64,000 bases of DNA from Patescibacteria group bacterium (GCA_041659765.1 JBAZXR010000001.1:108537-172536); one strand, 5' to 3'; shown: positions 18,051 through 52,459, counted from the stretch's first letter. Notes: generated by a model not told the origin, from the letters alone. A program made the numbers and translations.

Positions 18051-18060
18051 ACTTGTGGGG

Positions 18061-23719: not shown

Positions 23720-23746
23720 TTCGTGGTAAAATGTGTGGGAGTTATG

Positions 23747-25471
23747 CTAAGCCGTTGGGCTCAGAATACGTTTGCAGTAATCCTTGTTATGGCAGGGGGC
23801 TTTTTATTTTCTGCGCCACAGGTTTTCGCTCAAGCTGATCAAACGGCTCAGGTGGCTGCTACGGCCGGGTTTGGGACAGCTGATCTACCGACTATTATTG
23901 GCCAGATCATCAGTGTTTTTCTGGGACTACTTGGCGTAGTTTTTCTGGTCCTGACTATTTACGCCGGCACCATGTGGATGACGGCCGCCGGTGATCCTAA
24001 GAAAGTTGAGAAGGCTAAGAATATTTTGATTCAGGCGGCCGTTGGGTTATTAATTACGATCAGTGCTTACGGAATCACCACCTTTATAGTCAATGCGATT
24101 ACGGGCGGAACTGGCGGCGGTGGGGGCGGGACAGGCGGTGGAAGTAATGGCGGAGTCTCGGTCGAGAGCCTGTCTGGTGCTTTGGGCGCCGGACCAATTC
24201 GCGACCATTACCCAACCAGAAATCAGACTGATGTGGCCCGGAACGCTAAAATAATGATTACGTTTAAGGAGGCCATTGACCCGGCCTCGGTGACGGTTAA
24301 TTCCGTGAAGATTTTCCCTGCCTCCACGGGTGTTACTGGTGCGCTCACGGACACGGTTATTAACTTTACAGACGATCACAAGACTTTTGTCTTTAGGCCG
24401 GCCGCCTATTTGGGCTCGCCGACCGCTAAGGTCCAGTACACCGTCCAATTAACTACTGACATTAAAAATGCCGGTGGTGCCAAGCTGTTCTCCGGCTCAT
24501 ACAGCAGTGGGTATAAGTGGTCATTTGAAACTGGCACGGTGCTTGATCTGACGCCGCCGACAATTGTGTCCGTTACTCCTGCTAACTCTGGCGCCTATGC
24601 TCGGAACATCGTAGTGCAGGCTACTTTTTCCGAACCGGTTGACCCAACTTCTGCTTCGGGCGTCCGAACATCTTCCGGAGGTTTCTCGAACATTGGGATT
24701 ACAAGTAATGCGACTGTGCAGGTGCCTGGCGAATATCAGATTTCCAATGGCTATACTTCTGTAACCTTCATCTCGGCTGAGCCTTGTGGCACTAACTCTT
24801 GCGGAGAAAAGATTGTCTGCTTGCCGGCTAGCAGCAGTTTGAATGTCACCGTTAAGGGTGCAAGTACTACGGCTAATCCTCCGCAGGCAGATACCTTTCC
24901 GTATGACGGTGTGGTAGACATGGCCGGTAATTCTTTTGATGGCAACCACGACGGCACGGCTGGAGACTTTTTTGGCTGGAGTTTTACGACCACCGGGGAT
25001 ATCGCGCTCGCGGGGCCAAAGATTGTGTCTGTTTCGCCGAATATTTCCGAAGAAGATGTGCCGCTTGATCAGCCGGTCACGATTACGTTTGGCGATGTCC
25101 TGATGACCTCTAGCGTTTCTCAAGACACAGTCCAGTTATCTAATAAAGAACAGGTGTCTGGCATTTCTCATGAAATGTGGTTTTCGCCGAGCACCTCCTA
25201 TTTGACGAGCGATGATCAGGTGGTGACTTCGGCTGCTCAGATTCCGGCCAAGACGGTGGTTGAAGTGACTCACGGAACGTTCTTGCAGTCGGTGGACGGC
25301 AAGTCATATTTGTATGGCTCGACAGTCACGAGTGGTTTGTTGAACCAGTATCAAAATTGTTATGTGCCCGGAGCGGGACCTGATGCGGTTGGCGGATTGT
25401 GCGGTGTGTCGGCCGCAGAGCCGTACTGCTGCAACGGTATCCCATCTTCCTCGGCTTGCATCCTCTTCTAA
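23747..25471 (+). CDS. Secreted surface protein with a TrbC/VirB2-like two-helix N-terminal anchor, Gly-rich linker and Ig-like (Big) domains
   Basis: Signal peptide, then two hydrophobic helices separated by GDPKKVEKAKN (VirB2/TrbC pilin-like), a G-rich stretch and beta-rich repeats. A TGnTAAAAT -10 precedes it and its stop abuts the giant gene. The track start at 23723 is possible. Confidence 0.65.
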   Translation, partial: LSRWAQNTFAVILVMAGGFLFSAPQVFAQADQTAQVAATAGFGTADLPTIIGQIISVFLGLLGVVFLVLTIYAGTMWMTAAGDPKKVEKAKNILIQAAVGLLITISAYGITTFIVNAITGGTGGGGGGTGGGSNGGVSVESLSGALGAGPIRDHYPTRNQTDVARNAKIMITFKEAIDPASVTVNSVKIFPASTGVTGALTDTVINFTDDHKTFVFRPAAYLGSPTAKVQYTVQLTTDIKNAGGAKLFSGSYSSGYKWSFETGTVLDLTPPTIVSVTPANSGAYARNIVVQATFSEPVDPTSASGVRTSSGGFSNIGITSNATVQVPGEYQISNGYTSVTFISAEPCGTNSCGEKIVCLPASSSLNVTVKGASTTANPPQADTFPYDGVVDMAGNSFDGNHDGTAGDFFGWSFTTTGDIALAGPKIVSVSPNISEEDVPLDQPVTITFGDVLMTSSVSQDTVQLSNKEQVSGISHEMWFSPSTSYLTSDDQVVTSAAQIPAKTVVEVTHGTFLQSVDGKSYLYGSTVTSGLLNQYQNCYVPGAGPDAVGGLCGVSAAEPYCCNGIPSSSACILF

Positions 25472-25477
25472 AACATT

Positions 25478-28400
25478 GTGAACATAAACCGCTTAAAACA
25501 CTTGGTTGTCGGGTTACTCGTCGCTACGAGCTCGGCTTTGCCGTTGGCTTTGCCAATGATCGCTTCCGCGCAGACGGACACGGTGACGAGCGGGCTTGAG
25601 ACCGTGGGTACAGCTACTGGTTTAGGAAATGAGGATCCGCGGATTATAGTGGCGAGAATTATTAGAGTAGTGATTTCTTCGCTCGGCGTAATCGCCGTGG
25701 TTATTGTTCTTTACGGCGGTTTCGTCTGGATGACCTCGGCTGGCAATGAAGAGAAGGTGAGTAAAGCTAAGAAGATTTTGTTGAGCGGCGGTATCGGTCT
25801 AATGATTATTCTGATGTCATGGTCCATCACCACCTTCATTATTAGTTCACTTTTGAGTGCAACTGGCGGTGGTGGTGGCGGTTCTGGCGGCGCAGGTGAC
25901 GGTGTAGGCGGAACTAGTCTGGGTGGCGGTTCTGGCAGTGGCTTTGTAGTAACCGGTATTGTTCCTAAGGGTGAGGTGACGATTAGAAATGTGCAGGTTC
26001 GTGTAACATTCTCGAAGAATGTTGATCCTGCAAGCATTGCTAACGCCTTTACGGTTAAAAATACCCTGACGGGTGCAGTCATTGCTGGTACGCCATCTGT
26101 TTCCGGAAACACCATTACTTTCAAACCTAGCACGCCTTGTTCGGACGCGGCACCAGCTCCGCTTTGTTTTGACGCGAGCACTCAGTTTACGGTCACCATG
26201 ACTACGGCCATTAAGAGTACCTCGGCGGTTGCTTTGACGTGTCCGACTAGCCGTCCCTGTGCTGGCAGCTTCACGACTGGAACTATAGTCGACGAGGTTC
26301 CGCCAACAGCTTTGATTACTGACCCTGACGCTGGACAGCGCGTGCCAGCCAATAGCTTTCAGAACGTTCAGGTGGTTGGTACTGATGATGTTGGTGTCGC
26401 TAGTGCTACCTTCTTGGCCGGTACTGTCAGTTTTGACGAAGTTCCGGCTACCGGAGCGGATCTCACGAGCGTAACAATTAGCGCTGATTGGGATACGAGC
26501 AACGAGGATGCTGGAAACTCGGTAAAATTGTCTTCCACTATTACTGACCTGGCTGGTAACACGGCTGAAGACTCAGTTGGGGTGCTCTTAGCACCAGCTT
26601 CATGCCAAAATAACGTCTTAGATTCCGGCAGTGGAGAAACGGGGATTGATTGTGGCGGTGATCCGACTAGCGCGAACTATTGTGGCGCGTGTGACGGCTC
26701 GGCTTGTACTTCTTCTACTGATTGTCAGTCCGGTTCTTGTGTGAGCGGTGTTTGTCGGGCTACGACCGTTATTAGAGCGGTTTCGCCATTGTCGGGTGCG
26801 CCTGGTACTTACGTCACAATTTCTGGTAATTCTTTTGGGGCAACGCCGGGCAAAGTTTTGTTTGTTGGTCCGGGCGCGCCAGTTGAGGCGGTTCTAGCTC
26901 CGTGTGCTGATGGTTGGACAGACCGCCAGGTAGTAGTCATGGTGCCGCCAGGTCCGGCTGGAACTGGTCCGATTACTATTGTGCGAGCAAATGCGGTAGA
27001 TGATTTTGATAAGGATTTAACTAATGATAATCGGGGTCCGCTCATTGCTAACTTCGTCGTGAACACGGTGGCGCATCCAAATCTGTGTGGTCTTTCGGCT
27101 ACCAGTGCCAAAGCTGGCGATTCGCTCACGCTTACCGGATCCGGTTTCGGCGCTAGTCGAGGGACTTCGGTAGTGGCCTTTGGTAGTAATCGTCCCGCCT
27201 CCACCTATTCGTCATGGTCTGATTCTTCCGCTCAGGTAGTGGTGCCGGTCGTAGCCTCTCGTGATGGCTCGTACGCTGTACATGTGGTTTCCGACGCCGG
27301 CATTTCGTCGAATAGCATTAGCTTACGCTTTACCTCGGCCGCTTCTTCTGGCGGATCTACAACCTCAGGTGGGACAACTACGCCGGGAGGCGTGACTACA
27401 CCAGGCGGGACTACTACTCCCGGTGGAACCACAACTCCAGGCGGAACCACTACGCCTGGCGGTTCAGCCGCCTCTGCACTTGTTCCGTCGCTCGTTTCGA
27501 TTGATCCTGGTCAGGGTGGAATAGGGCGTTACGTTAGTTTGACGGGCACAAATTTTGGTTCCGCTAAGGGGATTGTCAAGTTCACTAATACCGCGACCGG
27601 CGATACTGCGGTGGCTAGCTTGGATGTTTCTGCAGCCTGCGGTGCGGAAAACCCATGGGGTAACACGCTGATCAGATTTGTCGTTCCCGGCACCTATACA
27701 AATGGCACGGCCATCGCGGTCGCCGCACATACTGTGTCTATCACCTCAGCCAGTGGCCAGATTTCTAATACTGTTCCATTTACTATAATCGCTGATGATA
27801 CAAGACCGAATGTGTGCGGAATCGTGCCCGCTACTGGCCAGGCCGGGGATACGATAAAAATTGTTGGCGATCGGTTTGGCTCAACCAATGGCGCGGTTAC
27901 TTTTTCGTCGAGTGTGACTTCAGTCATCACCTCTTGGAGTAATACCGAAGTCAAAGTGACCGTTCCGGCCAGTGCTCAGAGCGGCAGTGTCACCCTAGCC
28001 AACGCCGCCGGAGTAAAAGGTAACAATGTTTATTTCAGCGTGGCTTCGCCTACTTCATCGGCTGGCGCGGTGGGCGGCGGCTATGCTTGGAGTTTTTCTT
28101 CCGGTTCCATTCCTAAAGTTCCAAGTTTGGTAACTGAGTGTTCGGCTTCGGTCGTTTCTGCTGTGCCGAATAACCGGTTTACGGACTCGGTTTGTACCAA
28201 TGCTGTGGTGTATGCCGAATTCACTCAGCCGATGAACCAGGCCACAGTGCAGGGTGCGGTGAAGGTTGACCGCTGTACCGGCGAAGGCTCTAACCCGTGT
28301 TCTTCGGTGATGGCGGTGACAGGTCAGACGCTCACTACTTTAAAATCTTTTACTTTTACGCCAAGCACGCCGCTGGCTATAAGTTCAACTTACCGCGTGA

Positions 28401-31400
28401 CCGTGGCCGCTACGGCTGAATCCGCCGATGGGGCAACTTTGGCTAGAGACGCTGAGTGGACTTTTGTGACAGCATCAACTAATACAGCTTGTTTAGTTGA
28501 TAGTGTCAGAGTGTCACCGGCCAAGGCGACTATTAACGTAAAGAACGGGACGGAAAGCTTCTCGGCCCTGCCGACGGCTGGTTGTGTGGTGCTTGACCCA
28601 GCTGGGGTTGAGTGGGATTGGGCACTGAATCCTAGTTTTGCGGCTCGTAATACAACGGCCAATCCGTCCTGTGTGGGCGGGTCTACGGCTTGTTTGACTG
28701 CTGAGGCTTTGGCCGAGGGTGTGACACCGGTCACGGCCACGGTGAGCAATACAGCGACAAACAGTTCAGCTAGTTTGACAATCGAGTTTACAGATCCGTA
28801 CGTCACCGGCGTTTGGCCTGATTGTGACGCCGCCTGCATGAACGCACAGATTGGGGCGAGCTTTAACATTCCAATGAATAAGCAGAGTCTTGAGGCCTCG
28901 GGGAACGTTCGGCTGTTTGAGTGTACAAACGAACTTTGCTCCGCTACTTCAGAGATTACGAGCCCGGACGCTAGATGTATGACGGTGACCGGTCAGTCTC
29001 CTGAGTGTACGGGCTTCGCCTTGAAGACCGTTACGCTCAACCCCGGTAAGTTTTATAAAGCACGGATTAGCGGCTCGGTTAGAAGCGTAAGCGGGGTGCC
29101 GTTGACTAGAACTAATGACGGAGGCGATTATTCTTGGGTGTTCCGCGCTCGGGAAGACGCTAGTGCTTGCGTGGTCAGCCGAGTTTCTATTTCTCCGGCC
29201 ACTGCTCTAGCCAAGGCGGTTGGTGACAAAACAACCTTTACGAGTACGGCCTTTGGCGAAGCTGATAGCTGTTCACAGTCTGGTCAGCGACTAACCGGCT
29301 TCTCTTACTCATGGACCTGGGCCAACCCGATTATTGATGAGGATCTGGATAGCAATCCGGCTACTAAAGTAGCAGAGTGGCTAGGTTCTTCACTTCGAGA
29401 CACTTCTCCTTCAGCTATTCCATCTGCCTGCTCCGCATCATGTACTCCTGGTGGCAGCGTGCCTTATGAAGCGATTTGCGGTGACGGGGTGCTTGATCTT
29501 ACAGGCGGCGAGGAATGTGAAGATGGCAACGTGGCCAATGGCGACGGTTGTTCAGCTTCTTGTTTGCATGAGGGGACTAGCGCGCCAACTTGTGGCAACG
29601 GCCTTATTGATACCGCCGAGGATTGCGATGACCGTAATCTGATTGATGGTGACGGTTGTTCAAATAGGTGTCAGTCCGAAGGTTCGCGCTCAGTTGGCGC
29701 AACCTGTGGAAATAATGATATCGCTCGTAACGCCACCACAAAAGCTGGCGAAGAATGTGATGATAGTAACGCTAAAAATGGTGATGGCTGTTCTTCCAAC
29801 TGTACCAATGAGGGGACACCGTCATTAGCGTCTATCGGCGGGGCGGTTTGCGGTGACCGCGTAGTCAACATACCGGGCGAGGGTTGCGACGATGGAAACA
29901 TTATTAACGGCGATGGTTGTTCGTCGGTTTGTTTGCATGAAGGCTCGCTTACGACTTGTGGAGTTGGCGGGGTTGACGCTGGCGAGGATTGTGATGATGG
30001 AAACGGGTTGAACGGTGACGGCTGTTCCTCCAGATGTTTGTTTGAGGGCTCTTCGGTGGCTTACTCGCTGCCATCTTTCTGTGGCGATGGCGTGGTTGGA
30101 ACGGGCGAATATCCGGCCTGCGAAGCTGGTGTAACAGGTGACGGTCGAATTGATCCTTTGCAAACCGCCATCATCAGTAGTGATGCAGCTTTTGAGGTAG
30201 ACTTGGCGACCAAGCGGGCGCACGCTACGGTTGAGGTTAAAGAAAACTCCTCTGGTCTATCTACTACCGCTGATCTTTCTTTGTCGTGCGTAGCCACCTC
30301 TGATGCCAGCTGTTCGGACCCTGCTCACAACGGCGTCGGTTCAGCTAGCTGCTGCATGCCACGGCCAACGGTGACGCTGATCCCAACCTCTGCTTCTACA
30401 ACCTGCCGTAATCCGGCCTTGTACGGTATCTTTTCTCAGAAGATGGATCTAGAATCATTTACTACTACCAACACTGACAGAGCGCTGACGGTTGAGACTG
30501 ACCACTTGTACCTGCAACTGGACTTGCCGGCTACCACTGCTCTTCCTGGAATGCCAGGTTCTGAGATTAGGTGTCCAAGTGGGTATCGCGTAGCTTTTGG
30601 TCATGATCCAAAGGGCTTCTTAGCTCGGGCAAAAAATACCATCGTTCGCTTCTTCGTTGGTGATTCAGCAGTCGCCGCGGAAGGTAAATGCTTGCTGCCG
30701 GTTACTGGCTACGAGCAGGTTGAACAGGACGATGGAACGTACAAAATTTATCTAAAATACGCTAAAGCGCTTGAGCCAAATGCGTCTTATACCCTTGTGG
30801 TTGATGGTGATCCAAATGTTCAAGATGGAGTAATAGTTGGAGTTACTTCAGTTTCAGGTGTTGGTTTGAACGGCACGGCCTCGTCTACATTTAGAACTGG
30901 CCCGAACCTATGTTCGTTAGATGAGGTCAAGGTGACCGACAACTACCGTGCGTCGCCCTACCTCTTTACGCGGGGTGATGAGGTGCATGCGTTTACGGCT
31001 GCAGGTATTTCTCATACGAATGGCCTAATTCAGGAAATCCAACCGATTCTCGGAGTCTACGATTGGGATTTTGATAAATGGAAGATTGCTGATGAGACCC
31101 TGTTTGGAGTGTCAGCTATCGGACCCAATATTCCTCATGACACTGTTGATATTAAATCCTTAGCGAAAAACGGCTCGACGAGTCTTTCAGCGCAGGCCAC
31201 TATTGGAGCAGACACGTTTGGCGGCACGACAGGCAAGAAAGTGATCGGTTCGACTGGGATAACGGCATTTTTATGTGAGAATCCTTGGCCGCCTCTACCT
31301 AAGTTCCCGTGGTCTGATGACCCGGCGGGCGAAGCTAACGGACTCGCATCGCAGGGGACTGAGGGCTGGATGAACATTTCTAGTTATTACTGTCGCGATC

Positions 31401-34400
31401 AGGGAGCGGTGGGCGTAGCTGCTGATCTGCCGACTGTTACGCCGGTTCGTCCGCCGGTAGCCGGAACTTCAAATATTATCAAGCAATACTTGTTTGAGGT
31501 GAGTGATGGTTCTGGCGACGCAATCGGCCTTCGAGTGGTGAGCAATCCGGGCTACCTCTCGCCGATGGCTTGGTATCGGGCTCAGAACTTCAAGGGCGGT
31601 CCCAAGGAGACTGTAGTGGATGGTTTTGCGGCGGTACAGGACGGCAGTACGGTGTATGTGGCTGCTCCTAACTATGCCAATGGCAAGTTCTATTCCAATA
31701 TCTACGTTTTGTCTGCCAATGAGGGGGCGAACGAAGCGACGCTAAAGATTTTTGCGAGCATGCTTGAGAATCTTAAGTTTGCGATTGACCTGAATGACGT
31801 GACTGTCTGTACTATTGGCGGATCCTTGTCGGATACAAGCTGCTCTTCGGATGATGATTGTCTGGCTCTTGGGGCTGGTGCAGTTTGTCCGTCTTTAAAG
31901 GCGAAGGTGCGCCGTGATACTCAGAGACTATCTGATTTGACGACTATCCGTTCAGCTATTACAGCCTACGGCGTGGATAATAGAGTATGTTCCATCACCA
32001 GGTCTCAGTCTTGCGCTTCAAATATTGAATGTCCGGTTGGCGAGTCCTGCGCATCAATTATTCCGGCGCTGTCTGCTGGAACCTTCGTGCGCAATTTCTC
32101 TGCTAGCCCGTGGACTAGCTGGGGCGACATGCTGGGTGGCGCGCTTGGCGCGAAGGAACTGCCAGTTGACCCGTTGAATGCCTTCACACCTAATACTTGC
32201 GGAGTAGTGGGTGGGCCATTAGCTAGTTTTGATCAGGCCAACTGCGTTGACCAGTCAAAGGGAACGTATACATGTCCGTTTGGTTCTCACGTGTACCAGT
32301 ATTTGGCGCAGGGAGACAGCTCGGTGAAACTATCGGCTAACCTTGAATTCTTTGAGGTGTGGGCTAGTCCAATTGATAATAATGGTTCGGCCGATGGAGT
32401 GGATATTACAGTTGGTAGAGCTAACGTGTCGGCTGATGGCTTTAGCACGGGGGACGTATGTTCAGGCGCGGTGCTTGGCAGTTCTGCCGTTTGCGGCGAC
32501 GGCGTAGTGGGCAGTGGCGAGGCCTGTGAACTTGGTCAGCGTGAGACTACAGTCGCCATCTGTGATGGTAATAATGATGGAATTATTGATGGTTTCAAGA
32601 CCAGGGTTTGTAATTCATCCTGTACCGCTTTTGTGGATGATCCTCAAGCCGTCTGCGTTTCACCTACTTGCGGGAATGCGGTCAAAGAGGGTTCTGAAGA
32701 GTGCGATGACGGTTCAAAAAATGGCTCGTACGGTTTCTGTGGAGCTGACTGTAGACGAGCCAGCGCCTTCTCTTGCGGAGATGGCTCTTTGGCCGGTGGC
32801 GAGAAATGTGATTGTGGCTCAAGCGGATCTCTGACTGGTCGTCGGGCTAATGGCAACGGCATCTGTCAGGTTTATAACGGCGTGTATCAGTCCAGTCCTT
32901 CAGCCTCATGTGCTTGGGATTGTTCCGGTCCAGCGCCATACTGCGGCGACAAGCATGTTGATAGCGGCGAACAATGCGATGGTACAGATGAGTTCTGGGA
33001 CGGAAAGTTGTGTTCAAGCGGCTCGCTGATTGGCCAGCCATGTACATCTGACAGTATGTGCGGAACCGCTGGCTTATGTGGCGGAACTAGCGCCTATGCG
33101 GCTTGTCCGGTCGGGGAGACGCGCACTCATGATTGTAATGACGCCGTGGGTGCTAGCTGTGCCTACTCAAATACTTGGCTAGCTGCTACCTGCGTCAGGG
33201 TAGGAACTTGCGGAGATGGTGTTGTCCAGAGCGGTCTAGAGCAGTGTGACGACGGAAATCAAAATGACACTGACGCCTGCACTCATTTGTGTAAGGTTAA
33301 CGTTTGCGGTGACGCTGCTCTTAACCCGCAGACAGAAGAATGTGACCTGGGCACGCAGAACGGCGGTTCTTGCAGCTCATCTTACGGCTCTACTTGCACC
33401 GCTTGTTCTGTGACCTGCCGCAACGTTATTTCATCCGGCGCGTTCTGTGGTGACGGCGTGAAGAATGGCACGGAGTTCTGTGATGGTTCTGACGTGCCAC
33501 TGACTTACTTCGATTCTGCCACCATGAAGGCCGGTGGGTCATGTGCTACGGACGGGGCAACGTCCAGCATTTATACCTGTCGTAGTTTAGGCGTGTGTAA
33601 CGGTGGAGCTAAGAATGGTCAGCTCTGTACAGCCGGATATATTGGTAGCACTGGTCCTGATTCCTACGCTCTTGATGTAGCTGACTGTACAGATTTAACC
33701 GGCAGTTACGAATGCGTTAAGCCGGCTTGTTCCGGTACTTGTTCTTCCTCCTGCCCGCTAACCTTTGCTAGTACCAGCTTGCTCATGACAGCTAATCAGC
33801 CAGGTTCGCGCCCAAGCCCAAGTGTCGATCTCTACTCGTACAACACGAGCTCTACCTCAACTCTGCCCAACGCGGCTACTATTACGGTTCCTGCTTGTAC
33901 GGTATTGCCCTCGGTTTCCGCGAACATCCGTTACGCCGAGAACTATGAACCACCGCAGGTGTACGTGATGTTCATCACTGATCTTTCGCAAACGATGAAA
34001 TACCGGGTCCGTGACGATGTTCTTCCTGGTTCAGGCGAAAAATCTCGGTTGGCTGTGGCGCAGGCTTCCATGGACTCAGCAACTGCAAGTTTGTATGAGA
34101 AGTTTGGTGCTAACGTGCATATCGGTTCGATCGGCTTCAAAGGTTTGGCGCAAGGAACTTGCTACAATAAAACCAACACATCCTGCACGGCGGGGACGGC
34201 TGCGGGCGATACTACTTGTTCAAACTTAACTCCGGGTGACTTCTGCTTGGACAAAACATCTCAGATTTCTGCTTCAACTATTACCTATCCGTTCGGTGAT
34301 ATCTATAGCTATAAGCTTGCTGATAGCACGGGGGCGTATTCGTTCGCTGATCAGCCGCAGATGTCTTCGCTAGTTTCGGCTATTGACTCAATGTTCGTTG

Positions 34401-35020
34401 ACAAAACGGGACCAACTGGTTGTACATCTAGTCCTTGTCAGTCAACAAATATCCATGGGACGAGAACTTATGAAGGTTTGGTTGAAGCTCGTCAGATGTT
34501 TAAGAAGATTAATGATTTGTCGACCACGGATAAGACTAATACCCGGTACATCGGGATCCTGCTATCTGATGGCGAGTATACGAACACAGACCCGCTCATT
34601 GAAGCAGCTGCATGGAAGGATAAATACGAGCTTTATACGGCCACAATCGGCAATGATTCGGCGTTCATTGCGCAGATGAACAGGTGGTCGACGAATAGTT
34701 GGGATGGAACTACGGCCAACACGAGTTCTGACACGTACAATGGCGTTGATTATTCCTTTACGGCATCAACGGATACGCAATTAACGGGCATTTATAGCCA
34801 GATAGTTAATACGATCCAAAATATTAGCGTTAAACTGGTTGTTGATAGTGGAGCTGCCTCGACTAGCGTGAATACTGGAAACGGAATCTCGCTCGTTTTG
34901 CCGCAAGGCTTTGCCTGCGACAAGCTTCACTCACAGAACGTGCCTATTCAGGTGACCTTTGCAGGCAAGGGGCAAATGACTATTAGTGACGTGCGTGTAA
35001 ATTATTGTGCGGCTCCATAG
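25478..35020 (+). CDS. Giant (3180 aa) VirB2/TrbC-anchored surface protein with Ig-like/IPT domains, Myxococcus-type cysteine-rich repeats (DUF4215-like) and a vWA domain with MIDAS
   Basis: GTG start 7 nt after the upstream stop. Its N-terminus is paralogous to the 23747 gene. It has IPT/Big-like segments, a (TTPGG)n linker, about six CG(D/N)GxxDxxEECDDGNxxxGDGCSxxC repeats (aa ~1330-1530) plus a second array (aa ~2340-2660), and DxSxS (ITDLSQTM) of a vWA/MIDAS at aa ~2830. Confidence 0.75.
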
Positions 35021-35900
35021 TATGGAAGACCTAGAGACCCAACAACCGCCAGTTGCCCAGCCAACGGTAGCTACTACCGCGCCGGTCTTTTATTCGCTCG
35101 CTCCAGAAGAAGCCCCAAGACCGACTCCGTGGTACAGGAAGCGTCAGCTGGTGGTGATGGCGGTTTCGTTCGCGGTTGCCCTTTTTGTGATCGGAGGGGT
35201 GGTGATCTTTGCGTCTAATTGGTTCGCTCAAAAAAATGCCCCGGCTAAAATAGCGGCTGAGGAAGCTTCCTCTATGTTGGCTGATAAAGTGTCGGCTTGT
35301 GATCAGGCGCTGGATCCAGAGACATGCAAAAACGGAGCCGGGATGCAGGTGGCGAACGCTACGGGTACGGCTGAGGTTTGTAACGGTTTGACGGGGGAGC
35401 TGCTTGATTCTTGCGTGTCCTTGGCCGCTCGGGCTGCGGCGAGCATCTCTGCCTGCGGTAAGCTAGATGGAGCTGCTAAGACGGCTTGTGAAGACGGTGC
35501 TTATAACGCTGAGGCTCAGACAAAGAATGATTTGACCTTGTGTGCCAAGATTGTAGACCAGGCTTTGGCTCTCGGTTGCGGATCTCGTGTGACGGAGGCA
35601 GCTTTGGCGAATAACTCCTGTGTTGCATCACACGTTGACCCGGTTCTTTGTTCCGATAGGCAGAGTTTATTAACAGCTATGAATTCTGGATTAGAGAGCG
35701 CCTGCACGGCACTATCTGATGAAGAAGCGAGGATAGATTGCATAAACGGTATCCATTCACTTGATGTAGACGGCGATGGTCTATCCGTTTTTGACGAAGT
35801 AAATACCCACCACACAGATCCTGTAAAACCGGACACTGATGGAGACGGGTATACTGATGGAGACGAGGTATCCACCGGACATGATCCTTTAAAGAAATAA
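35007..35900 (+). CDS. Bitopic membrane protein with Cys-containing extracellular domain and C-terminal Ca-binding DxDxDG (thrombospondin-type-3 / dockerin-like) repeats
   Basis: Pro-rich N-terminus, one TM helix, then DVDGDGLSVFDE and DTDGDGYTDGDE repeats. Overlaps the giant gene by 14 nt. Confidence 0.6.
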   Translation: MRLHSMEDLETQQPPVAQPTVATTAPVFYSLAPEEAPRPTPWYRKRQLVVMAVSFAVALFVIGGVVIFASNWFAQKNAPAKIAAEEASSMLADKVSACDQALDPETCKNGAGMQVANATGTAEVCNGLTGELLDSCVSLAARAAASISACGKLDGAAKTACEDGAYNAEAQTKNDLTLCAKIVDQALALGCGSRVTEAALANNSCVASHVDPVLCSDRQSLLTAMNSGLESACTALSDEEARIDCINGIHSLDVDGDGLSVFDEVNTHHTDPVKPDTDGDGYTDGDEVSTGHDPLKK

Positions 35901-35901
35901 T

Positions 35902-36549
35902 ATGTTTGACCAAGAACCTCAGGATATCTTTGCTGGAACGGATAAAGCTCCGGCGCCAGTTCAACCGCCAAGCGCAGTAGAGCGCGCTTCGGTTAATGCG
36001 TCACCAAGGCCGGCCCCAGCTATGGCTCCTGCTCCGGTTATGTCTGCTCCAAGGCAGCCTATGGAACCTTCGCCAACCTCTCATTTAATGAGAAATTTGG
36101 TGATCATCGTGATCGTAATTGCGGCTGTAGGCGGAGGAGCATACTTGGCTTATGCGCTTATGATTAAGCCGATCATGAATGCTAGCGTAGCGCCGGTGAT
36201 TCCGTCGGCCGTTAAGACTCCGGTTGTGCCAGCGGAGGAGACGCCACTCGCACCAGTTGAAACTCCGGTGGAGACTCCAGTGGCGGCTCCAGCCGAGCTA
36301 AACCCAAATTTCCTTGATAGTGATGGTGACGGTTTAAATAACGCCGCTGAACTTGAGGCGGGAACTTCGTCAACCAATCCTGACACTGACGGTGATGGTT
36401 TGGGAGATAGAGAAGAGGTGAGGGTTTATGGAACTGACCCTAATCGTACTGACACTGATGGCGATGGCTTCCTCGATGGGGCCGAAGTTCAGGGCGGTTA
36501 TAATCCGAACGGACCAGGCAAGCTCATGCAGATTCCAACCACCCCATAA
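35902..36549 (+). CDS. Paralogous bitopic membrane protein with Pro-rich linker and DxDxDG Ca-binding repeats
   Basis: TM helix, PV/PA-rich linker, then DSDGDGLNNAAE, DTDGDGLGDREE and DTDGDGFLDGAE. Confidence 0.6.
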   Translation: MFDQEPQDIFAGTDKAPAPVQPPSAVERASVNASPRPAPAMAPAPVMSAPRQPMEPSPTSHLMRNLVIIVIVIAAVGGGAYLAYALMIKPIMNASVAPVIPSAVKTPVVPAEETPLAPVETPVETPVAAPAELNPNFLDSDGDGLNNAAELEAGTSSTNPDTDGDGLGDREEVRVYGTDPNRTDTDGDGFLDGAEVQGGYNPNGPGKLMQIPTTP

Positions 36550-36552
36550 ATT

Positions 36553-37536
36553 ATGTTCGGATCTAAGGAGGCTCAACCGGTGACTCCAGCGGTGCCGGCA
36601 GTTAAAACTGACGACATGATTATTCATGTCATGCCCAAGGATTTTGCGGGAAAGCCGGCGTCTGCGGCAAGCGCGGGGTTGCAAACCCCGCCTTCTCAGG
36701 CGCCGATTCCGGCCCCGCAGCCTATGCCCGCACCAAAGCCGGTGGCAGCTCCCGCCCCGGCTGCACCAAAGCCGGCCGTGATTCCGCCTCCTAGGCGGAA
36801 GTTTGGCTTTGTTATCTTCCTGTTTGTTTTTCTTTTTGTCCTGTCACTTGGGGCTGCCGGAACCGTTTACTATCTCTATTTTATGCCGGTCGCGCCGTCT
36901 GAGAACGCGGGGTTAGTAACCCCGCCTTTACCGGCGCCTATTCCTGAACCCACCCCAATTCCGGTCGCGACGGAACCTGAGCCAGGCAAGGACACGGACT
37001 CAGACGGGCTGACTGATGTTGAAGAATTGCTATACGGAACTGATTACCGCAATCCAGACACTGACGGCGATACCTTCCTGGATGGCAACGAAGTCTTCCA
37101 CCGCTATAACCCGAACGGCCCGGCGCCGTTGACGCTCCTTGATACTGGCGCGGTGCGGGTGTTCGAATCGCCTGACATGCCGTTTACTATTTATTATCCG
37201 TCGGCTTGGACTCCGGTGGCTGACCCTATTGAAAAGAAGGTCACGTTCCGATCGCCCTCAACCGCGTCCGTGCTCATTACGGTTGAACTCAAAGATGCGA
37301 CCGCTAGCCTGGAAGGTTGGTATCAACAGAACGTACCAGACGAAAGCTCGCAGAAGCTTGAGGCGACATATACGTCTGAGGGCCTGCTCGCGCTGGCTCG
37401 TCGAGACCAGAGAATCGCGTATATTGATGGTGGTAGTAACGTCTTCACGCTCACTTATGACCTTGGAGATGAAAAAACCATTGAATTCCTATCTACCTTC
37501 CAGATGATGCTCAATGGTTTAAATCTTCTCCCATGA
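36553..37536 (+). CDS. Third paralogue: bitopic membrane protein with Pro-rich linkers, DxDxDG repeats and a C-terminal beta domain
   Basis: TM helix, PAP-rich linkers, DTDSDGLTDVEE and DTDGDTFLDGNE. Confidence 0.6.
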   Translation: MFGSKEAQPVTPAVPAVKTDDMIIHVMPKDFAGKPASAASAGLQTPPSQAPIPAPQPMPAPKPVAAPAPAAPKPAVIPPPRRKFGFVIFLFVFLFVLSLGAAGTVYYLYFMPVAPSENAGLVTPPLPAPIPEPTPIPVATEPEPGKDTDSDGLTDVEELLYGTDYRNPDTDGDTFLDGNEVFHRYNPNGPAPLTLLDTGAVRVFESPDMPFTIYYPSAWTPVADPIEKKVTFRSPSTASVLITVELKDATASLEGWYQQNVPDESSQKLEATYTSEGLLALARRDQRIAYIDGGSNVFTLTYDLGDEKTIEFLSTFQMMLNGLNLLP

Positions 37537-37958
37537 TTACTTTCGACGTCGAGCAAGAGTCTATCCCGAAGGGGAGCCGATTCTCTGGAGCGAGACTTAA
37601 GAAGATCGCCGGCGAGTTTGACGTTGCTCTGCGGAAGAAAGTAACCGGCATTGTTTCCTTGAGTTTTGTCGACGACCTAGAAATTCGTCGGCTTAACCGC
37701 ATGTACCGCAAGAAGGACAAGGTAACCGATGTTTTATCGTTTGGTTCCCCAGATGGCGATCGATCCGGGTATCTCGGTGACGTGATCATTTCGTACGAGC
37801 AGGCGGTGCGGCAGGCCGAAGACGAAGACCTCGAGCTTGAGCTGACTGATCTTCTCGTTCACGGCATCCTTCATGTGCTTGGTTACGACCACGAAAAGGC
37901 GGAAGATGCGGATGAGATGTTTCCTCTTCAGGATAAAATTGTGGCCGAAGTCCTATGA
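37533..37958 (+). CDS. ybeY: Endoribonuclease YbeY
   Basis: HGILHVLGYDHE metal-binding motif, 141 aa. Confidence 0.85.
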   Translation: MITFDVEQESIPKGSRFSGARLKKIAGEFDVALRKKVTGIVSLSFVDDLEIRRLNRMYRKKDKVTDVLSFGSPDGDRSGYLGDVIISYEQAVRQAEDEDLELELTDLLVHGILHVLGYDHEKAEDADEMFPLQDKIVAEVL

Positions 37959-38347
37959 TTTCTTTGCGAGCATTTTTCAAAAGTTTCCACCATGCTCTTC
38001 GCGGTCTCGCCGAATTATTTAAGACCGAACAAAGTTTTCGCCTTCAGGTGCTGGCGACAATTATCGTTGGCGGTCTCTTGATTGGGCTTGATCTCGCCGC
38101 TTGGCAAAGAATTCTGCTTATTTTGTTATGTTCCGCCGTCTTGATTCTCGAAATAATCAACAGCATCATCGAACGGGTCGCTGATGCAGTCCAGCCTCGG
38201 TTGAGTCCGATGGTGAAGGATGTTAAGGACATGATGGCGGGCGCAGTTCTTTTGACGGCGCTAACCGCGCTCGTGGTCGGGACGGCGATTTTGTACCTCC
38301 CGGTATGGGAAAAGGTCTGTGCTATAATTCAGTACTGTAAGCCCTAA
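37955..38347 (+). CDS. dgkA: Diacylglycerol/undecaprenol kinase (DgkA family)
   Basis: 130 aa, 3 TM, conserved ExxNSxIERxxD region. Confidence 0.7.
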   Translation: MISLRAFFKSFHHALRGLAELFKTEQSFRLQVLATIIVGGLLIGLDLAAWQRILLILLCSAVLILEIINSIIERVADAVQPRLSPMVKDVKDMMAGAVLLTALTALVVGTAILYLPVWEKVCAIIQYCKP

Positions 38348-38354: not shown

Positions 38355-39635
38355 TTGATTGCTCCTTTTTTGGCTATGGCCGATGAGATTATCACGGGCT
38401 TGGACATTGGAACCTCCTCCATTCGTATTGCTATTTGCAAGGTTTCGCCAGGGGAAGATGGTAAACCGGCCCTCCATGTGATTGGGGCGGTTTCTTCACC
38501 GTCTGCAGGTATGCATCGCGGAGCAGTCTCCAGTATGGAGGATGCAGTTTCGGCGGTGTCTAAAGCCCTTGAGAAATCTGAACGCATGACAGGAATCGGC
38601 GTGAACACCGTTTGGGCGAGCATTGCCGGGCAGAGCATTTTGGTTCAGGAGAGCCGTGGCGCCGTGGCGGTTGCACGTCCCGAGGGCGAGATTTCTGAGG
38701 GGGATGTGGAGCGATCTATGGAAGCAGCTCGTACAGTAGCTGTTCCTTCGAATTATGAAATTCTCCATGTTATTCCGAAGGGCTTTGCCGTTGATGGGCA
38801 GCGTGGGATCAAGGACCCAGTAGGGATGTCCGGCATTCGGCTAGAGGTCGATGCAGTGATCATCGAGGCGCTCAATTCGCACATGAAGAATCTGACTAAG
38901 TGTGTTTATCGCACGGGTCTTGATATTGAAGATTTGGTCTACGCTCCACTTGCGACCGCGGAAGCCGTGCTTACGCAGCGGCAAAAGGAGCTTGGCGTGT
39001 GCCTGGTGACGGTGGGTTCAGCCACGACGTCTCTGGCTGTGTTTGAGGAGGGCGATCTGTTGCATACCGCTGTGCTTCCGCTCGGCGGTGACCACGTGAC
39101 GAATGATATTGCTATCGGCTTGCGTACCTCCATTGATATTGCTGAGCAGGTTAAGATAGCTTATGGCCACGCCGTGCCAGACGCTGTAGATAAAAAAGAC
39201 CAGTTTATTCTGCGTGACTTTGGAGCTGAGGCTGATGATGAAGTGAAGCGCCGATTTGTCGCAGAAATCATGGAAGCTAGAATGGAGGAGATCTTTGAGG
39301 CGATTGATAATGAACTTAGAAAGATTGATCGTTCGGGAATGCTTCCTGTCGGTGTTGTCTTTACCGGGGGAGCTATGAAGACTCCAGGTGCAATTGAAGT
39401 AGCGAAACGCGTACTCCGGCTGCCGTGCGCTGTAGGCGCTCCGGTCGGCGTTACGAGTGTTATCGACGAGGTTCAGGATCCTGCCTTTGCCACGGCTATC
39501 GGTCTGGCTGCTTGGGGTTTTGGTATCAGGCAGGTTTCGGGCAGTAAGTTTAACTTTGGAAAAATGATCCCGCTCAAGTCAATGGACAAAGTGGCCGACC
39601 AATTGCGAAAGTGGATGAAATCCTTGATTCCTTAG
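38355..39635 (+). CDS. ftsA: Cell division protein FtsA
   Basis: Actin-like ATPase motifs (GLDIGTSSIR, VVFTGGAAM). An alternative start at 38376 is possible. Confidence 0.85.
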   Translation: MIAPFLAMADEIITGLDIGTSSIRIAICKVSPGEDGKPALHVIGAVSSPSAGMHRGAVSSMEDAVSAVSKALEKSERMTGIGVNTVWASIAGQSILVQESRGAVAVARPEGEISEGDVERSMEAARTVAVPSNYEILHVIPKGFAVDGQRGIKDPVGMSGIRLEVDAVIIEALNSHMKNLTKCVYRTGLDIEDLVYAPLATAEAVLTQRQKELGVCLVTVGSATTSLAVFEEGDLLHTAVLPLGGDHVTNDIAIGLRTSIDIAEQVKIAYGHAVPDAVDKKDQFILRDFGAEADDEVKRRFVAEIMEARMEEIFEAIDNELRKIDRSGMLPVGVVFTGGAMKTPGAIEVAKRVLRLPCAVGAPVGVTSVIDEVQDPAFATAIGLAAWGFGIRQVSGSKFNFGKMIPLKSMDKVADQLRKWMKSLIP

Positions 39636-39718
39636 ATGGTGTACTATACGGTAGGGTACGAAACGTACTCATAGAAACAGAGGACTGAACACACTTGGTG
39701 TTCAACATCTACTGCCGT

Positions 39719-41035
39719 ATGGCTGAGTTCAAGCCGGAAATAGAAACCTGTGCAAAAATTAAAGTGGTGGGGGTAGGCGGCGGAGGAGGCTCCGCCATTA
39801 ACCGCATGATCACGGAGAAAATCCGTGGTATTGAGTTTTTGGCAGTAAATACTGACGCCCAGGCGCTTCACGGCAGTTTAGCAAGCACGAAAATTCCGAT
39901 CGGTAAGACGGTCACGAGGGGTCTCGGTGCTGGCATGAACCCGGAGATGGGTCGCCGAGCGGTAGAGGAGAACGCAAATGATATTCGGAACGCCATCACC
40001 GGTGCGGACATGGTTTTCTTGACTGCCGGCCTTGGCGGAGGAACTGGCTCGGGGGCTGTCTCTGAGATCGCCAAAATCGCTAAGGAGATCGGGGCGTTGA
40101 CCGTGGCGGTTGTGACTAAGCCTTTTTCTTTTGAGGGGGCTCAACGTCGAAGAATCGCTGAAGACGCACACCATGAGCTGGCTCAGCATGTAGACACTAT
40201 TATCACCATTCCGAACGACCGAGTTTTACAAATTATCGATAAGAAAACATCTTGGGCTGAATCTTTTAGAATTATTGATGACGTTTTGCGGCAGGGCGTG
40301 CAGGGCATTGCGGAGATGATCACCGTTCCTGGGCAGATCAATGTGGACTTTGCTGACGTAAAAGCCATCATGCAGAACGCGGGCAGCGCCCTCATGGGTA
40401 TCGGCAAGGCGTCTGGCGAGTCCAGAGCTGTTGACGCTGCTAAGCAGGCTATCGCGAGTCCGCTCCTCGAAATCTCGATTGATGGTGCGAAGGGCATTCT
40501 CTTCACTGTCGCAGGCTCATCGGACGTGACTATGTTCGAGGTCCAAGAAGCTGCGAAGATTATTACTGGTTCAGCTGACGACGACGCTAAGGTAATCTTC
40601 GGCATCATCCAGGATGACACCCTCGGCGACGAGGTTCGCATTACTGTTGTGGCCACCGGATTCGATAGTCGGGATCACCGCCGAGCTCCGTCGCTTGGCG
40701 GGGAGATTGGTATTGCGCCGAAGTCCGGCTGGCGCCCGCAGGCAGAACTAGAGCCGGTTAGACGCTATACACCTCCGCCACCGCCATTTAACCCGCCACC
40801 TGAACCAGTCCAGAAGCAAGAAGCACCTGCTTCCCCTTTTGGTCGCCGGCCGGTTTCACAGTTTACCCCATCGGAGCCGTCTCCTGAGCCGTCAGTTTCC
40901 TCATTTAACCCATCTCCAGTTTCTCAGCAGAATAGAGTGACCCCGGCTCAATCTTCGCCTTCCGCCCAAAATTCCCAAAAAGAAGATGATGGAGAGTTTG
41001 GCATCCCGGCTTTTATTCGCAGAAAGATGATGTAG
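39719..41035 (+). CDS. ftsZ: Cell division protein FtsZ
   Basis: Tubulin signature GGGTGSG and T7 loop, with a Pro-rich C-terminal linker and conserved C-terminal peptide (DDGEFGIPAFIRRK). Start at MAEFKPE...; the track start at 39695 is 8 codons upstream. Confidence 0.9.
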   Translation: MAEFKPEIETCAKIKVVGVGGGGGSAINRMITEKIRGIEFLAVNTDAQALHGSLASTKIPIGKTVTRGLGAGMNPEMGRRAVEENANDIRNAITGADMVFLTAGLGGGTGSGAVSEIAKIAKEIGALTVAVVTKPFSFEGAQRRRIAEDAHHELAQHVDTIITIPNDRVLQIIDKKTSWAESFRIIDDVLRQGVQGIAEMITVPGQINVDFADVKAIMQNAGSALMGIGKASGESRAVDAAKQAIASPLLEISIDGAKGILFTVAGSSDVTMFEVQEAAKIITGSADDDAKVIFGIIQDDTLGDEVRITVVATGFDSRDHRRAPSLGGEIGIAPKSGWRPQAELEPVRRYTPPPPPFNPPPEPVQKQEAPASPFGRRPVSQFTPSEPSPEPSVSSFNPSPVSQQNRVTPAQSSPSAQNSQKEDDGEFGIPAFIRRKMM

Positions 41036-46632: not shown

Positions 46633-47027
46633 TGGTGGACCTGGCGGGAGTTGAACCCGCGTCCGAAAGTGATTAGAGAATGACTTGTTACATGCTTTGC
46701 CCGGCTGGGTAATGAAATCGCTCGAGCCGAGCAAAAGACGATTTCATATGTCTCTGAACCGTAATCGCAGTGAAGGCAGAGACGCCCTATACTGCACAGT
46801 CAGTCTTTATAGCACCCGGACTCTTCCCGATTGACATGGAAGGCGGATGTGGCAAGGGCGCTTAGGCCGTGGCCATGGAAAGTGATGGGGCAAATGCGAA
46901 ACGCATTGCTTCCTTCACCTTAGAGAATACATTGGCGTGTATGTCGTTGTACCAGGTGATACGGAGTCCGGTACCTCTCCTGCATGATCATTTCCCCTCA
47001 CAGCTTTCGTCGAAGCCTGGCAGGCCC
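46633..47027 (-). ncRNA. ssrA: tmRNA (SsrA), ~395 nt
   Basis: Reverse complement begins GGGCCUGCCAGGCUUCGACG and ends GGACGCGGGUUCAACUCCCGCCAGGUCCACCA. The acceptor stem GGGCCUG/CAGGUCC includes the G3-U70 wobble, with T-arm GCGGG-UUCAACU-CCCGC. An internal ORF ends ...SLSMATA-UAA. It lies directly downstream of smpB. Confidence 0.85.
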
Positions 47028-49696: not shown

Positions 49697-50758
49697 ATGA
49701 AAACAGATCAACGAATATTTGGCGCGGTCATTGTCCTGTCCATTATTTTAGGCGGGGGAGCGGGCATTATTAGCTCGACTATGACGTCTAGAGCTATCGA
49801 GTCTTATGCGGCTCAACTGCTAAATGATCAAAAGTTGATTTCACTTATTCCTCGGAAGTCACCGGCCATTCCGGGAACTTTTGAAGAAGCAATGAAGAAA
49901 AATAGAGAAGCGAGTCTTCGTTCGCTGGCTGTTTTGCTTCCGGCGAGTACGCCAAGCACCGCTGCTTCCGGTTGGATTTTTCCGGAAGGTGCTTTGAAAC
50001 TGGGCGTGCCAGTGACGAGTGACGGTTGGATTTTGACCTCCAGCGCTACTTTTAGTTCTAAGCTTTTGCCAAAAGATTGGGATGTTTATGTAGAGGGTAA
50101 GAGATTTGTGATTGATCGAGTCGTCCGGGATCCGCATTCAACCTTGGTTCTATTAAAACTGCAGAATGCGAGTGGACTTTTAACCGTTAGCTTTGGTAAA
50201 CCTGAAGATGTAGAAAGCGGCAGTACGGTTATTGGTTGGGGCGGGGAAGAAGATGTTCGAGCCACCCTGCTCGAAGCTGCCGATGCTGACACCAGACAGG
50301 GTCCGCAGAGCGCTGAGGTTTTTGCTACTACTTGGCGAGTTGGTTCGAGCTTACCGGCCGGCGTGCCAGTTTTTTCTTCTGACGCTGAACTCTTAGGCTT
50401 TGTGACTAGCGGAACGGATATCTTCCCGCTCCATCACTCCGGTGAGTTTGTGCAGGATGTACTTAAGAGCGGTTCGCCTAAGCTGGCTAAACTTGGGGTG
50501 ACGGTACTTGATCTCTCGCGCTCCTATAATGTGAGCGCTGAGGTGACTCAGGGCAGAGGGGAGGGCGCGTTGGTTCTGAATGCGGTTGGTCTGCTCCAGG
50601 CGTTGGACATCATTCTGGATGTAGACGGCCGGGCGGTCACCCATGCGGATACGCTGGCTGAGATATTGGCCGATTATGAACCGGGCGAAATAGCTAACAT
50701 TCATGTACTTAGAGCGGGCCAAAATGTGCAATTGGCCGTTACTTTGGGAGAATTATAG
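49697..50758 (+). CDS. HtrA/trypsin-like fold protein with C-terminal PDZ domain; canonical GNSGGP catalytic motif not seen (possibly inactive)
   Basis: N-terminal TM, a beta-rich middle region and a PDZ-like C-terminus (GVTVLDLS...GALVLNAV...LRAGQNVQLAVTLGEL). Confidence 0.5.
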   Translation: MKTDQRIFGAVIVLSIILGGGAGIISSTMTSRAIESYAAQLLNDQKLISLIPRKSPAIPGTFEEAMKKNREASLRSLAVLLPASTPSTAASGWIFPEGALKLGVPVTSDGWILTSSATFSSKLLPKDWDVYVEGKRFVIDRVVRDPHSTLVLLKLQNASGLLTVSFGKPEDVESGSTVIGWGGEEDVRATLLEAADADTRQGPQSAEVFATTWRVGSSLPAGVPVFSSDAELLGFVTSGTDIFPLHHSGEFVQDVLKSGSPKLAKLGVTVLDLSRSYNVSAEVTQGRGEGALVLNAVGLLQALDIILDVDGRAVTHADTLAEILADYEPGEIANIHVLRAGQNVQLAVTLGEL

Positions 50759-50994
50759 TCCCCAGCCTCTCTTGCGGGTTTTTTGCATCCCTGTTAATTT
50801 TCTGCGGACATGCCCCTTTTGAGGGCCCGATGGAACGGTCGTGACGCCTCCTCCTCGTCGCGATTTGTGACCGTTGGGCCTTCAAAGGGGGTATTGTAAT
50901 TTTGGCTAACAATAGCCTATAAAATCGTTTTCGGGATCCGGTTTCCGGTTTCATGGATCCGGAGTCCCGGACATCGGACACCGGACGCAAATAC

Positions 50995-52381: not shown

Positions 52382-52401
52382 CGGGCAATCGAATGGGCGG
52401 C

Positions 52402-52438: not shown

Positions 52439-52459
52439 GTCGCACCTCTCTTTCAATGA

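Follow-up and report, generated by a model that had tools for sequence, protein, structure and literature searches.

What do three adjacent genes for membrane proteins with calcium-loop repeats, lying between a giant adhesin-like gene and a set of division genes, contribute to a patescibacterial cell? The question is raised by a window of 64,000 nucleotides (nt) from a Patescibacteria group bacterium (GCA_041659765.1 JBAZXR010000001.1:108537-172536; all coordinates are counted from the first letter of the window), in which the three genes, here called P1, P2, and P3, follow one another. Patescibacteria presumably live attached to other cells, and to our knowledge almost nothing is known, outside Saccharibacteria, about the molecules of attachment or division in this group. 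The genes already carry the public labels 'thrombospondin type 3 repeat-containing' or 'hypothetical'; what is new is that their products have three distinct architectures and that the genes are maintained throughout the clade as one array, placed between the adhesin-like gene and the division genes. Synteny and protein anatomy point to a reading, to which we assign a probability of about 0.4, in which P1, P2, and P3 would be partners of the surface adhesin encoded next to them, anchored in the membrane, raised on stalks, and loaded with Ca2+.

The three genes are consecutive open reading frames (ORFs) on the + strand, arranged head-to-tail at 35007/35022-35900 (P1), 35902-36549 (P2), and 36553-37536 (P3). 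The initial annotation had placed three adjacent genes at 35007-37536, and only its start is shifted here. A mechanical ORF call begins P1 at GTG 35007, 14 nt inside the upstream ORF of 3180 amino acids (aa), which ends at 35020, and yields 297 aa. The alternative, ATG 35022, lies 1 nt after that ORF and yields 292 aa; it is most likely the true start, because it is favoured by orthologues and by independent gene calls, and because a public protein identical to the 292-aa form, annotated 'thrombospondin type 3 repeat-containing protein', exists. P2 has 215 aa. For P3, a public gene call of 318 aa is shorter than the 327-aa form, and the start at 36553 is preferred because the MFG/MFD start is kept among orthologues. 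The gaps measure 1 nt between P1 and P2 and 3 nt between P2 and P3, and the P3 stop codon overlaps the ybeY start by 4 nt. Such spacing, with gaps of 1-3 nt and overlapping stop and start codons, suggests that the giant gene and all genes down to ybeY are co-transcribed and translationally coupled. A promoter and terminator scan over 22-41.9 kilobases (kb) gave counts not above those of shuffled sequence, and an Rfam scan found transfer RNAs (tRNAs) and a transfer-messenger RNA (tmRNA) only, with no RNA element in or near the P1, P2, and P3 genes.

The three proteins meet in one module. Two or three DxDxDGxxDxxE loops per protein had been proposed, and we confirmed two in P1, three in P2, and two in P3, all of the Pfam TSP3_bac type of thrombospondin type 3 (TSP3) repeat. 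A loop was defined by acidic or amide side chains at positions 1, 3, 5, 9, and 12, with a tandem spacing of ~22-23 aa. P1 carries DVDGDGLSVFDE, which has a one-residue insertion, and DTDGDGYTDGDE; P2 carries DSDGDGLNNAAE, DTDGDGLGDREE, and DTDGDGFLDGAE (motif starts at nt 36316, 36382, and 36451); and P3 carries DTDSDGLTDVEE and DTDGDTFLDGNE, in the second of which Thr replaces Gly6. A regular-expression scan of the whole 64 kb in six frames returned six DxDxDG loops, all within the P1, P2, and P3 genes and none elsewhere. The seventh, the first loop of P1, escapes the expression owing to its insertion and was read from the sequence, within a Pfam match of two stretches. Against TSP3_bac (PF18884; gathering cut-off, 25 bits), P1 (3e-11, 43.4 bits) and P2 (1.6e-16, 60.3 bits, three stretches) scored above the cut-off and P3 below it (0.023, 15 bits), with 40 of the 42 P3 orthologues matching at E<=1. 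The modules occupy 35757-35897 at the extreme C-terminus of P1, 36310-36516 in P2, and 36985-37122 in P3. Pairwise BLASTP comparisons (P1-P2, 4e-12; P2-P3, 2e-15; P1-P3, 2e-7) were significant over a TSP3 stretch of 42-53 aa only, so the similarity lies beyond the Pro-rich regions and within the module. The ectodomains outside the module are unrelated in P1, P2, and P3, in line with the earlier view that the proteins have diverged elsewhere.

In the AlphaFold2 (AF2) model of P1, the TSP3 pair superposes on Staphylococcus aureus Bap (7c7u_A) over 44 columns, with a root-mean-square deviation of 1.1 Å and 45% identity by Foldseek. The loop pair of Bap region B (EF-hand motifs 2 and 3; 7C7U / 7C7R) is the closest solved one, and phmmer relates it to P2 at E=0.006. 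Bap DxDxDG loops bind Ca2+, mediate Ca2+ sensing, and switch the behaviour of the protein (PMC7785521), and by analogy the P1, P2, and P3 loops would bind Ca2+ too. Bap differs in being an LPXTG-type wall-anchored giant whose loops are buried in a large folded region, and the rest of P1, P2, and P3 is unlike it.

Among other relatives of the module, the OmpA-family TSP3_bac proteins (Balneolaceae, Bacteroidota) have the same ~22-aa repeat, in which DxDxDGxxDxxE is followed by x(3)YGTDPxxx, with 60-69% module identity. Those proteins are outer-membrane or peptidoglycan-binding proteins of diderms with an OmpA_C domain, whereas P1, P2, and P3 appear to be N-in single-pass anchors, their repeats being paired with a PsbP fold (P3), with Cys-paired helices (P1), or with nothing (P2), and their genes form an array of three in fixed order. 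Eukaryotic thrombospondin/COMP type 3 repeats also have tandem Asp-rich DxDxDG loops. An identity with eukaryotic TSP_3 (PF02412) was rejected: the profile gave no match at E<=1, and the modules of P1, P2, and P3 contain no Cys and lack the disulfide Cys of the animal repeats. Type I dockerins are alike in having a duplicated ~22-residue segment in which a 12-residue EF-hand-like loop is followed by a helix (in the P1 model, helices 256-262 and 279-284 exit after the loops), and further in that the modules would be extracellular and the genes adjoin that of a very large multi-domain surface protein. Dockerin_1 (PF00404) had no match in P1, P2, or P3 at E<=1, and it was not among the 25 families listed for 42 P3 and 36 P1 orthologues. 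The missing profile match and the lack of a cohesin among the Pfam matches of the giant neighbour speak against a type I dockerin identity, although a receptor of a non-canonical kind is conceivable. The initial annotation, which had expected dockerin or TSP3 repeats, accordingly stands for TSP3_bac and falls for Dockerin_1 and the eukaryotic family; by analogy, a dockerin-like mode of action is possible.

Conservation was measured as column identity per region in the orthologue alignments, in place of a ratio of nonsynonymous to synonymous substitution rates; P1, P2, and P3 can be aligned with one another over ~45 codons only, at 61-74% DNA identity, and synonymous sites are saturated, since even the closest non-identical orthologues share just 61-76% of their protein sequence. 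The TSP3 module was the most conserved part of each family (81% in P3, 64% in P1, and 64% in P2), compared with 45% in the globular domain of P3 and 17-30% in stalks, tails, and linkers. Conservation extends to positions that do not ligate Ca2+, for example in EELLYGTDYRNPD and TLLDTGAV. The strength of conservation in the modules relative to the stalks is an argument for regarding the loops as a specific functional surface, not filler, and contradicts the proposal that the three proteins are variable surface partners.

These values also bear on an alternative in which P1, P2, and P3 are independent envelope proteins, the TSP3 repeats being mere Ca2+-stiffened spacers and the gene order inherited baggage. 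The TSP3 repeats of OmpA-family proteins are assumed to act as such spacers, and TSP3_bac is very widespread: at E<=0.001 it has 22,197 representatives, whose diverse architectures include OmpA, YkuD, and TIG. Pfam and NCBIfam scans of P1, P2, and P3 showed no functional domain other than TSP3 and the PsbP fold, which would suit a spacer as well. Fast evolution would be expected of spacers, yet the loops and their flanks are the slowest-evolving parts, non-liganding positions included, and the array persists with its upstream adhesin-like gene across lineages, even where the adhesin has been replaced. We therefore regard independent spacers as unlikely; if they were the truth, the present results would amount to routine annotation only.

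Is the trio a recent local duplication? A word-indexed search gave 378 homologues of P3, full length and 39-76% identical. A profile search found 997 representatives at E<=1e-30; among the 150 listed, about three quarters are full-length, at ~300-420 aa. P3 relatives are encoded in at least 349 stretches of the GTDB species set, and 80 of these loci were kept; their titles are mainly Uhrbacteria, and also Magasanikiibacteriota, Buchananbacteria, Falkowbacteria, and Parcubacteria. The common order in the fetched loci is large adhesin-like gene, P1, P2, P3, ybeY, dgkA, ftsA, ftsZ, nrdR. Arrays were counted in the 83 fetched loci with a recognisable ybeY. P1-P2-P3 stands directly before ybeY in 41 of them, and variant arrays occur in 24 (P2-like, P2-like, P3 in 15; P3-like, P3 in 8); the remaining 18 have P2-P3 or P3 alone, mostly ended by the contig end. 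A P3-type gene is last, directly before ybeY, in 83/83.

The TSP3 modules of these loci cluster by position, the nearest neighbour belonging to the same positional class in 111 of 117 cases. Cross-position module identity is 54.4% within a genome and 53.6% between genomes, and a DNA repeat scan found the modules to be 61-74% identical over 44-65 nt only. The positional clustering, the lack of a within-genome excess, and the DNA scan rule out a recent triplication, gene conversion, or concerted evolution of P1, P2, and P3. On these sequence comparisons, the three are best described as old orthologous families that have stayed together in a fixed array, whose order is retained in distant Patescibacteria, and not as fresh duplicates; the recent or ongoing local gene triplication of the initial annotation is not borne out. 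The fuller form of that idea, in which recently triplicated paralogues diversify as variable dockerin-like surface modules, could appeal to the common topology of the proteins, to their homologous TSP3 module, to the MF[DG] start and NPNGP tail shared by P2 and P3, and to the P2,P2,P3 or P3,P3 arrays of some lineages. Position-specific orthology and the identities just given speak against it, as do the lack of a Dockerin_1 match, the unrelated folds of the ectodomains outside the module, and the fact that the modules are the most conserved part of the proteins, and we consider it highly improbable. The shared module alone is no proof of duplication in place, because the P1 module is closer to unrelated OmpA-family proteins (60-69%) than to P2 (55%) or P3 (45%). 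The three anchors may share an ancient common origin, and the lineages with P2,P2,P3 or P3,P3 arrays indicate that duplications within the family have happened at deep time scales.

Each protein has a single strong hydrophobic segment, with Kyte-Doolittle 19-aa maxima of 2.4-2.8. The transmembrane (TM) helix lies at 35142-35210 in P1 (residues ~41-63 of the 292-aa form; maximum, 2.8), at 36088-36165 in P2 (residues ~63-88), and at 36802-36876 in P3 (residues ~84-108, with PPPRRK just before it; AF2 helix 84-110). Mean counts of Lys plus Arg before and after the TM helix were 3.4 vs 1.7 for P1 (36 orthologues), 2.3 vs 1.4 for P2, and 3.7 vs 0.7 for P3. Because these residues are commoner on the N-terminal side across orthologues, the pattern points to type-II single-pass envelope proteins with an N-in/C-out topology. 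A short cytoplasmic N-terminus and one TM helix had been described; the single helix holds for each protein, and the N-termini, at 40-83 aa, are not very short. PA/PV-rich linkers are likewise present in P2 and P3 (14% Pro each) and not in P1, which has only 4.7% Pro and 12 Cys. The cytoplasmic N-terminus contains a conserved peptide in each family, namely QP[VQ][FY]YSL in P1, MFD..EPxD[IM]F in P2, and VVIHVMPKEF in P3, as judged from the orthologue alignments.

P1 is a bitopic protein with a Cys-paired helical ectodomain (35283-35756) ahead of its C-terminal TSP3 pair. The ectodomain is built from helix-hairpin repeats, six in number and each containing two Cys that are spaced by 8-12 residues, as identified from the orthologue alignment (36 sequences, 25-61% identity) and the AF2 model. 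Ten Cys (C120, C131, C145, C156, C174, C186, C200, C210, C228, and C240), paired at distances of 9-12 residues, are invariant or nearly so. They fit disulfide-type pairs, and the conservation of the pairs would suit an extracytoplasmic, oxidising location of the ectodomain. The model is all-helical with a mean predicted local distance difference test (pLDDT) of 90.7; a single long helix, 37-93, runs from the TM segment into the stalk and is followed by the helix-hairpin stack and then by the two loops. The helical region had no Pfam match in any of the 36 aligned members. In the PDB, Foldseek found no match at E<=0.001 to the helical part; its hits, all at E>0.4, were helical repeats of generic or designed type, and a word-indexed homologue search with the helical domain alone found P1 itself only. 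A local hidden Markov model of the domain recognised one ORF per locus in 43 loci, at the first array position in 42/43.

P2 is composed of the N-terminal peptide, a Pro-rich cytoplasmic tail, the TM helix, a Pro/Val-rich stalk, three TSP3_bac loops, and the tail GYNPNGPGKL. Beyond the peptide, the Pro-rich tail, and the TM helix, it consists almost entirely of a variable stalk and three loops; among 39 positional orthologues, column identity falls from 64% in the loops to 17% in the stalk before them.

P3 comprises the cytoplasmic motif, a Pro-rich tail, the TM helix, a stalk, the TSP3 pair, and a C-terminal domain with a predicted PsbP fold. The motif (residues 21-36, 36613-36660; consensus VVIHVMPKEFxGxEA) shows 53% column identity compared with 24-30% in its flanks; in the alignment of orthologues, P28 never varies and the conservation of M27 reaches at least 90%. 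Within the window and the fetched loci, it is confined to P3-type genes. The highest conservation is found in the TSP3 pair and the ensuing NPNGxAPxTLLDTGAV, with residues 191-201 at 90%. A 39-nt direct repeat inside P3 (36672-36710 and 36906-36944, 82% identical) flanks the TM helix, its copies encoding AGLQTPPSQAPIP in the cytoplasmic tether and AGLVTPPLPAPIP in the outer one, so that the two Pro-rich tethers share a duplicated segment. In one fetched locus (L077), the P3 orthologue is present as two overlapping ORFs, at 3325-4038 with the N-terminal motif and TM helix and at 3999-4568 with the TSP3 and PsbP-fold parts, which reflects a frameshift pseudogene or else an error in the assembly.

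The C-terminal domain of P3 (residues ~200-327, 37150-37533) was modelled with block pLDDT values of mostly 89-98, and 80-82 at residues 301-320. In Foldseek searches of the PDB, the best match was BT_1490 (3hlz, 1.5e-5), followed by plant PsbP and cyanobacterial PsbP (CyanoP) at 4e-5 to 4e-4 and then by Tsi3, SciW, and Mycobacterium tuberculosis (Mtb) Apa. The domain, an antiparallel sheet with helices on its flanks, superposes on 3hlz, 1v2b, 2xb3, 2lnj, and 3wa5 at E values of 1.5e-5 to 9e-4 and probabilities of up to 1.00. The Pfam PsbP profile gave 12.1 bits (E=0.2) for P3 of the window, under the 23.5-bit cut-off, and weak matches in 20 of the 42 P3 orthologues (best, 3.7e-4). By its model, the domain has a PsbP/Mog1 fold and would belong with the PsbP/CyanoP/Mog1/DUF1795 superfamily, from whose known members it differs in this sub-threshold score, in its fusion to a TM anchor and TSP3 loops, and in lacking a photosystem context. 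The PsbP/Mog1 fold is widely used as an adaptor that binds proteins or ligands.

Directly upstream of P1 lies the gene of the giant 3180-aa surface protein (25478-35020, +), in which Pfam at E<=0.001 recognised T4SS_pilin, Big_5, TIG, and DUF4215 only; the T4SS_pilin part is a VirB2-like anchor, and the DUF4215 repeats are Cys-rich. The position of the array right after a giant adhesin, as first described, was confirmed and is kept across species. The gene before it (23723-25471, +) encodes a 582-aa protein with Big_5 and a T4SS_pilin N-terminus like that of the giant protein. Both of these consecutive genes fuse a VirB2-like hairpin to a large extracellular region, and the pilin-type N-termini appear to serve as anchors of adhesin-sized proteins. 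VirB2-like pilins of Patescibacteria have been treated in a paper on type IV secretion systems (T4SS) that does not cover the P1, P2, and P3 genes (PMC12102498). In the fetched loci, a large adhesin-like ORF immediately precedes the TSP3 genes in every case where enough flanking sequence is available. The adhesins of the four most divergent loci examined carry Laminin_G_3, TIG, Big_5, or Lcl_C instead of DUF4215 and the possible VWA domain. Because adhesin domains differ between lineages while the TSP3 array persists, the pattern suggests a changeable adhesin beside constant TSP3 anchors.

An anchoring role could work as follows. The stalks, Pro-rich in P2 and P3 and formed by the long helix and Cys-paired helical repeat in P1, would keep the Ca2+-loaded TSP3 modules a defined distance away from the membrane, within the wall or outside it. 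Among themselves, or jointly with the adjacent gene product, the modules would build a rigid platform for interactions, and P3 would contribute its PsbP-fold domain as an extra binding domain. The platform may then anchor or organise the very large adhesin-like protein encoded immediately upstream, with adhesin domains varying by lineage and the TSP3 anchors, chiefly their loops, remaining unchanged. A related combination is known from the surface adhesion and gliding proteins CglD and MtsD of Myxococcus, in which TSP3 loops are combined with VWA-type adhesins; P2 gave weak NCBIfam matches to both, in the TSP3 region only (CglD, 1.1e-8; MtsD, 1.4e-6). The scores lie far under the cut-offs (33 bits against 400), and CglD and MtsD differ in architecture, being lipoproteins or large multi-domain proteins of a diderm.

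Several observations weigh against such anchors. The C-terminal VWA match of the 3180-aa protein is sub-threshold (E=0.078) and weak in an orthologue, and neither a cohesin (Pfam, E<=0.001) nor another recognised TSP3 receptor was found in this protein. The TSP3 region of P3 was modelled with low confidence (pLDDT ~50-57). The array is linked to ybeY-dgkA-ftsA-ftsZ as constantly as to the adhesin gene, so gene order cannot separate the adhesin from FtsA as the partner, and synteny in small streamlined genomes can outlast a functional link.

The downstream genes, all on the + strand, are ybeY (37533-37958, overlapping P3), dgkA (37955-38347), ftsA (38355-39635), and ftsZ (39695-41035), and they have this order in all fetched loci. 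They underlie the main rival reading, in which the cytoplasmic N-terminal peptides of P1, P2, and P3 would bind the actin-fold protein FtsA and the trio would couple the Z-ring to the wall or surface, perhaps in place of bitopic divisome proteins. The analogy is with the pairs FtsN-FtsA and PilN-PilM, whose layout is similar: a conserved N-terminal peptide, a tether, one TM helix, and an ectodomain, near ftsA. The N-terminal peptide of FtsN binds the IA-IC cleft of FtsA (PMC7613929), and a conserved N-terminal motif of PilN binds PilM (PMC5805733). In every one of the three families, the short conserved peptide on the cytoplasmic side is followed by a long flexible tether and then by a TM helix; ftsA and ftsZ lie downstream in every fetched locus, and the product of ftsA, two genes downstream of the trio, has kept its SHS2/1C domain. 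A possible further parallel is the resemblance of the P3 motif I-H-V-M-P-K to the PilN motif I-N-L-L-P.

Homology with the proteins of these pairs found no support. No sequence or fold homology of P1, P2, or P3 to FtsN or PilN was detected, and none of the three matched POTRA, FtsQ/DivIB, FtsL, DivIC, or FtsN in Pfam or NCBIfam, with DivIC appearing in 2 of 42 P3 members at E>=0.24. The top 50 fold matches of P3 contained no FtsQ/DivIB, and Pfam PilO appeared in 1 of 42 P3 members (0.086), which leaves PilN/PilO homology unsupported. Divisome (FtsQ/DivIB/DivIC) and PilN/PilO homologues were rejected for lack of profile or fold support. A tether to FtsA has further points against it: ybeY and dgkA, unrelated to division, intervene, and we know of no divisome in which Ca2+-loop modules or a PsbP-fold domain are parts. 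With these points on both sides, a division tether seems to us doubtful, about on a par with independent spacers, and adhesin anchors remain the reading that we favour. A bolder combination, which we would call a long shot, makes the trio the conserved core of a hitherto undescribed surface apparatus specific to one large Patescibacteria clade (Uhrbacteria and relatives): the Ca2+-loaded, dockerin-like stalks would assemble and hold an exchangeable giant adhesin, the N-terminal peptides would be wired to FtsA, and adhesin placement would be coupled to the division site, replacing missing bitopic divisome proteins.

A literature search found no paper joining 'thrombospondin type 3' with Patescibacteria and nothing on the P1-P3 trio in searchable papers, and PF18884 was mentioned in an Omnitrophota preprint only. 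With a module kept across hundreds of species, in which the putatively extracellular Ca2+-loop surface is the most conserved part, the trio offers a concrete candidate for the attachment or division machinery. It also exposes two domain definitions that are lacking in current libraries, the Cys-paired helical repeat of P1 and the TSP3-plus-PsbP-fold architecture of P3.

Five fetched loci have 1-6 kb of small ORFs that separate ftsA from ftsZ (L003 at 13262-18694, and also L009, L017, L018, and L019), two genes that adjoin each other in the window; the insert of L003 contains a NUDIX gene and several ORFs of ~80-236 aa without a Pfam match. Many public metagenome-assembled genome records with a Patescibacteria-type locus (L006, L009-L011, and others) are titled 'uncultured Gammaproteobacteria', and that of L079 'Vicinamibacterales'; these titles look like taxonomic mislabels or mis-binned contigs. 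Homologues of the window genes are found in Patescibacteria, the closest in Candidatus Uhrbacteria. Besides ybeY, dgkA, ftsA, ftsZ, and the RNA genes, the window carries the ordinary housekeeping genes of a small genome (aspS, scpAB, parAB, relA, topA, dprA, der, lepB, hisS, hflX, nrdR, and pyk). Its five tRNA genes include two adjacent tRNA-Met genes, and the tmRNA gene (46633-47027, -) encodes the tag peptide ANVFSKVKEAMRFAFAPSLSMATA. A GC-rich island at 50700-55100 (0.57-0.63, compared with ~0.52 elsewhere) is possibly acquired DNA. It contains an ORF of 517 aa (52672-54225, +) that is lipoprotein-like, with the lipobox-like start LFLGACGG and Cu-binding_MopE motif repeats, flanked by two ORFs without a Pfam match (51134-52549, -; 54337-54885, -).

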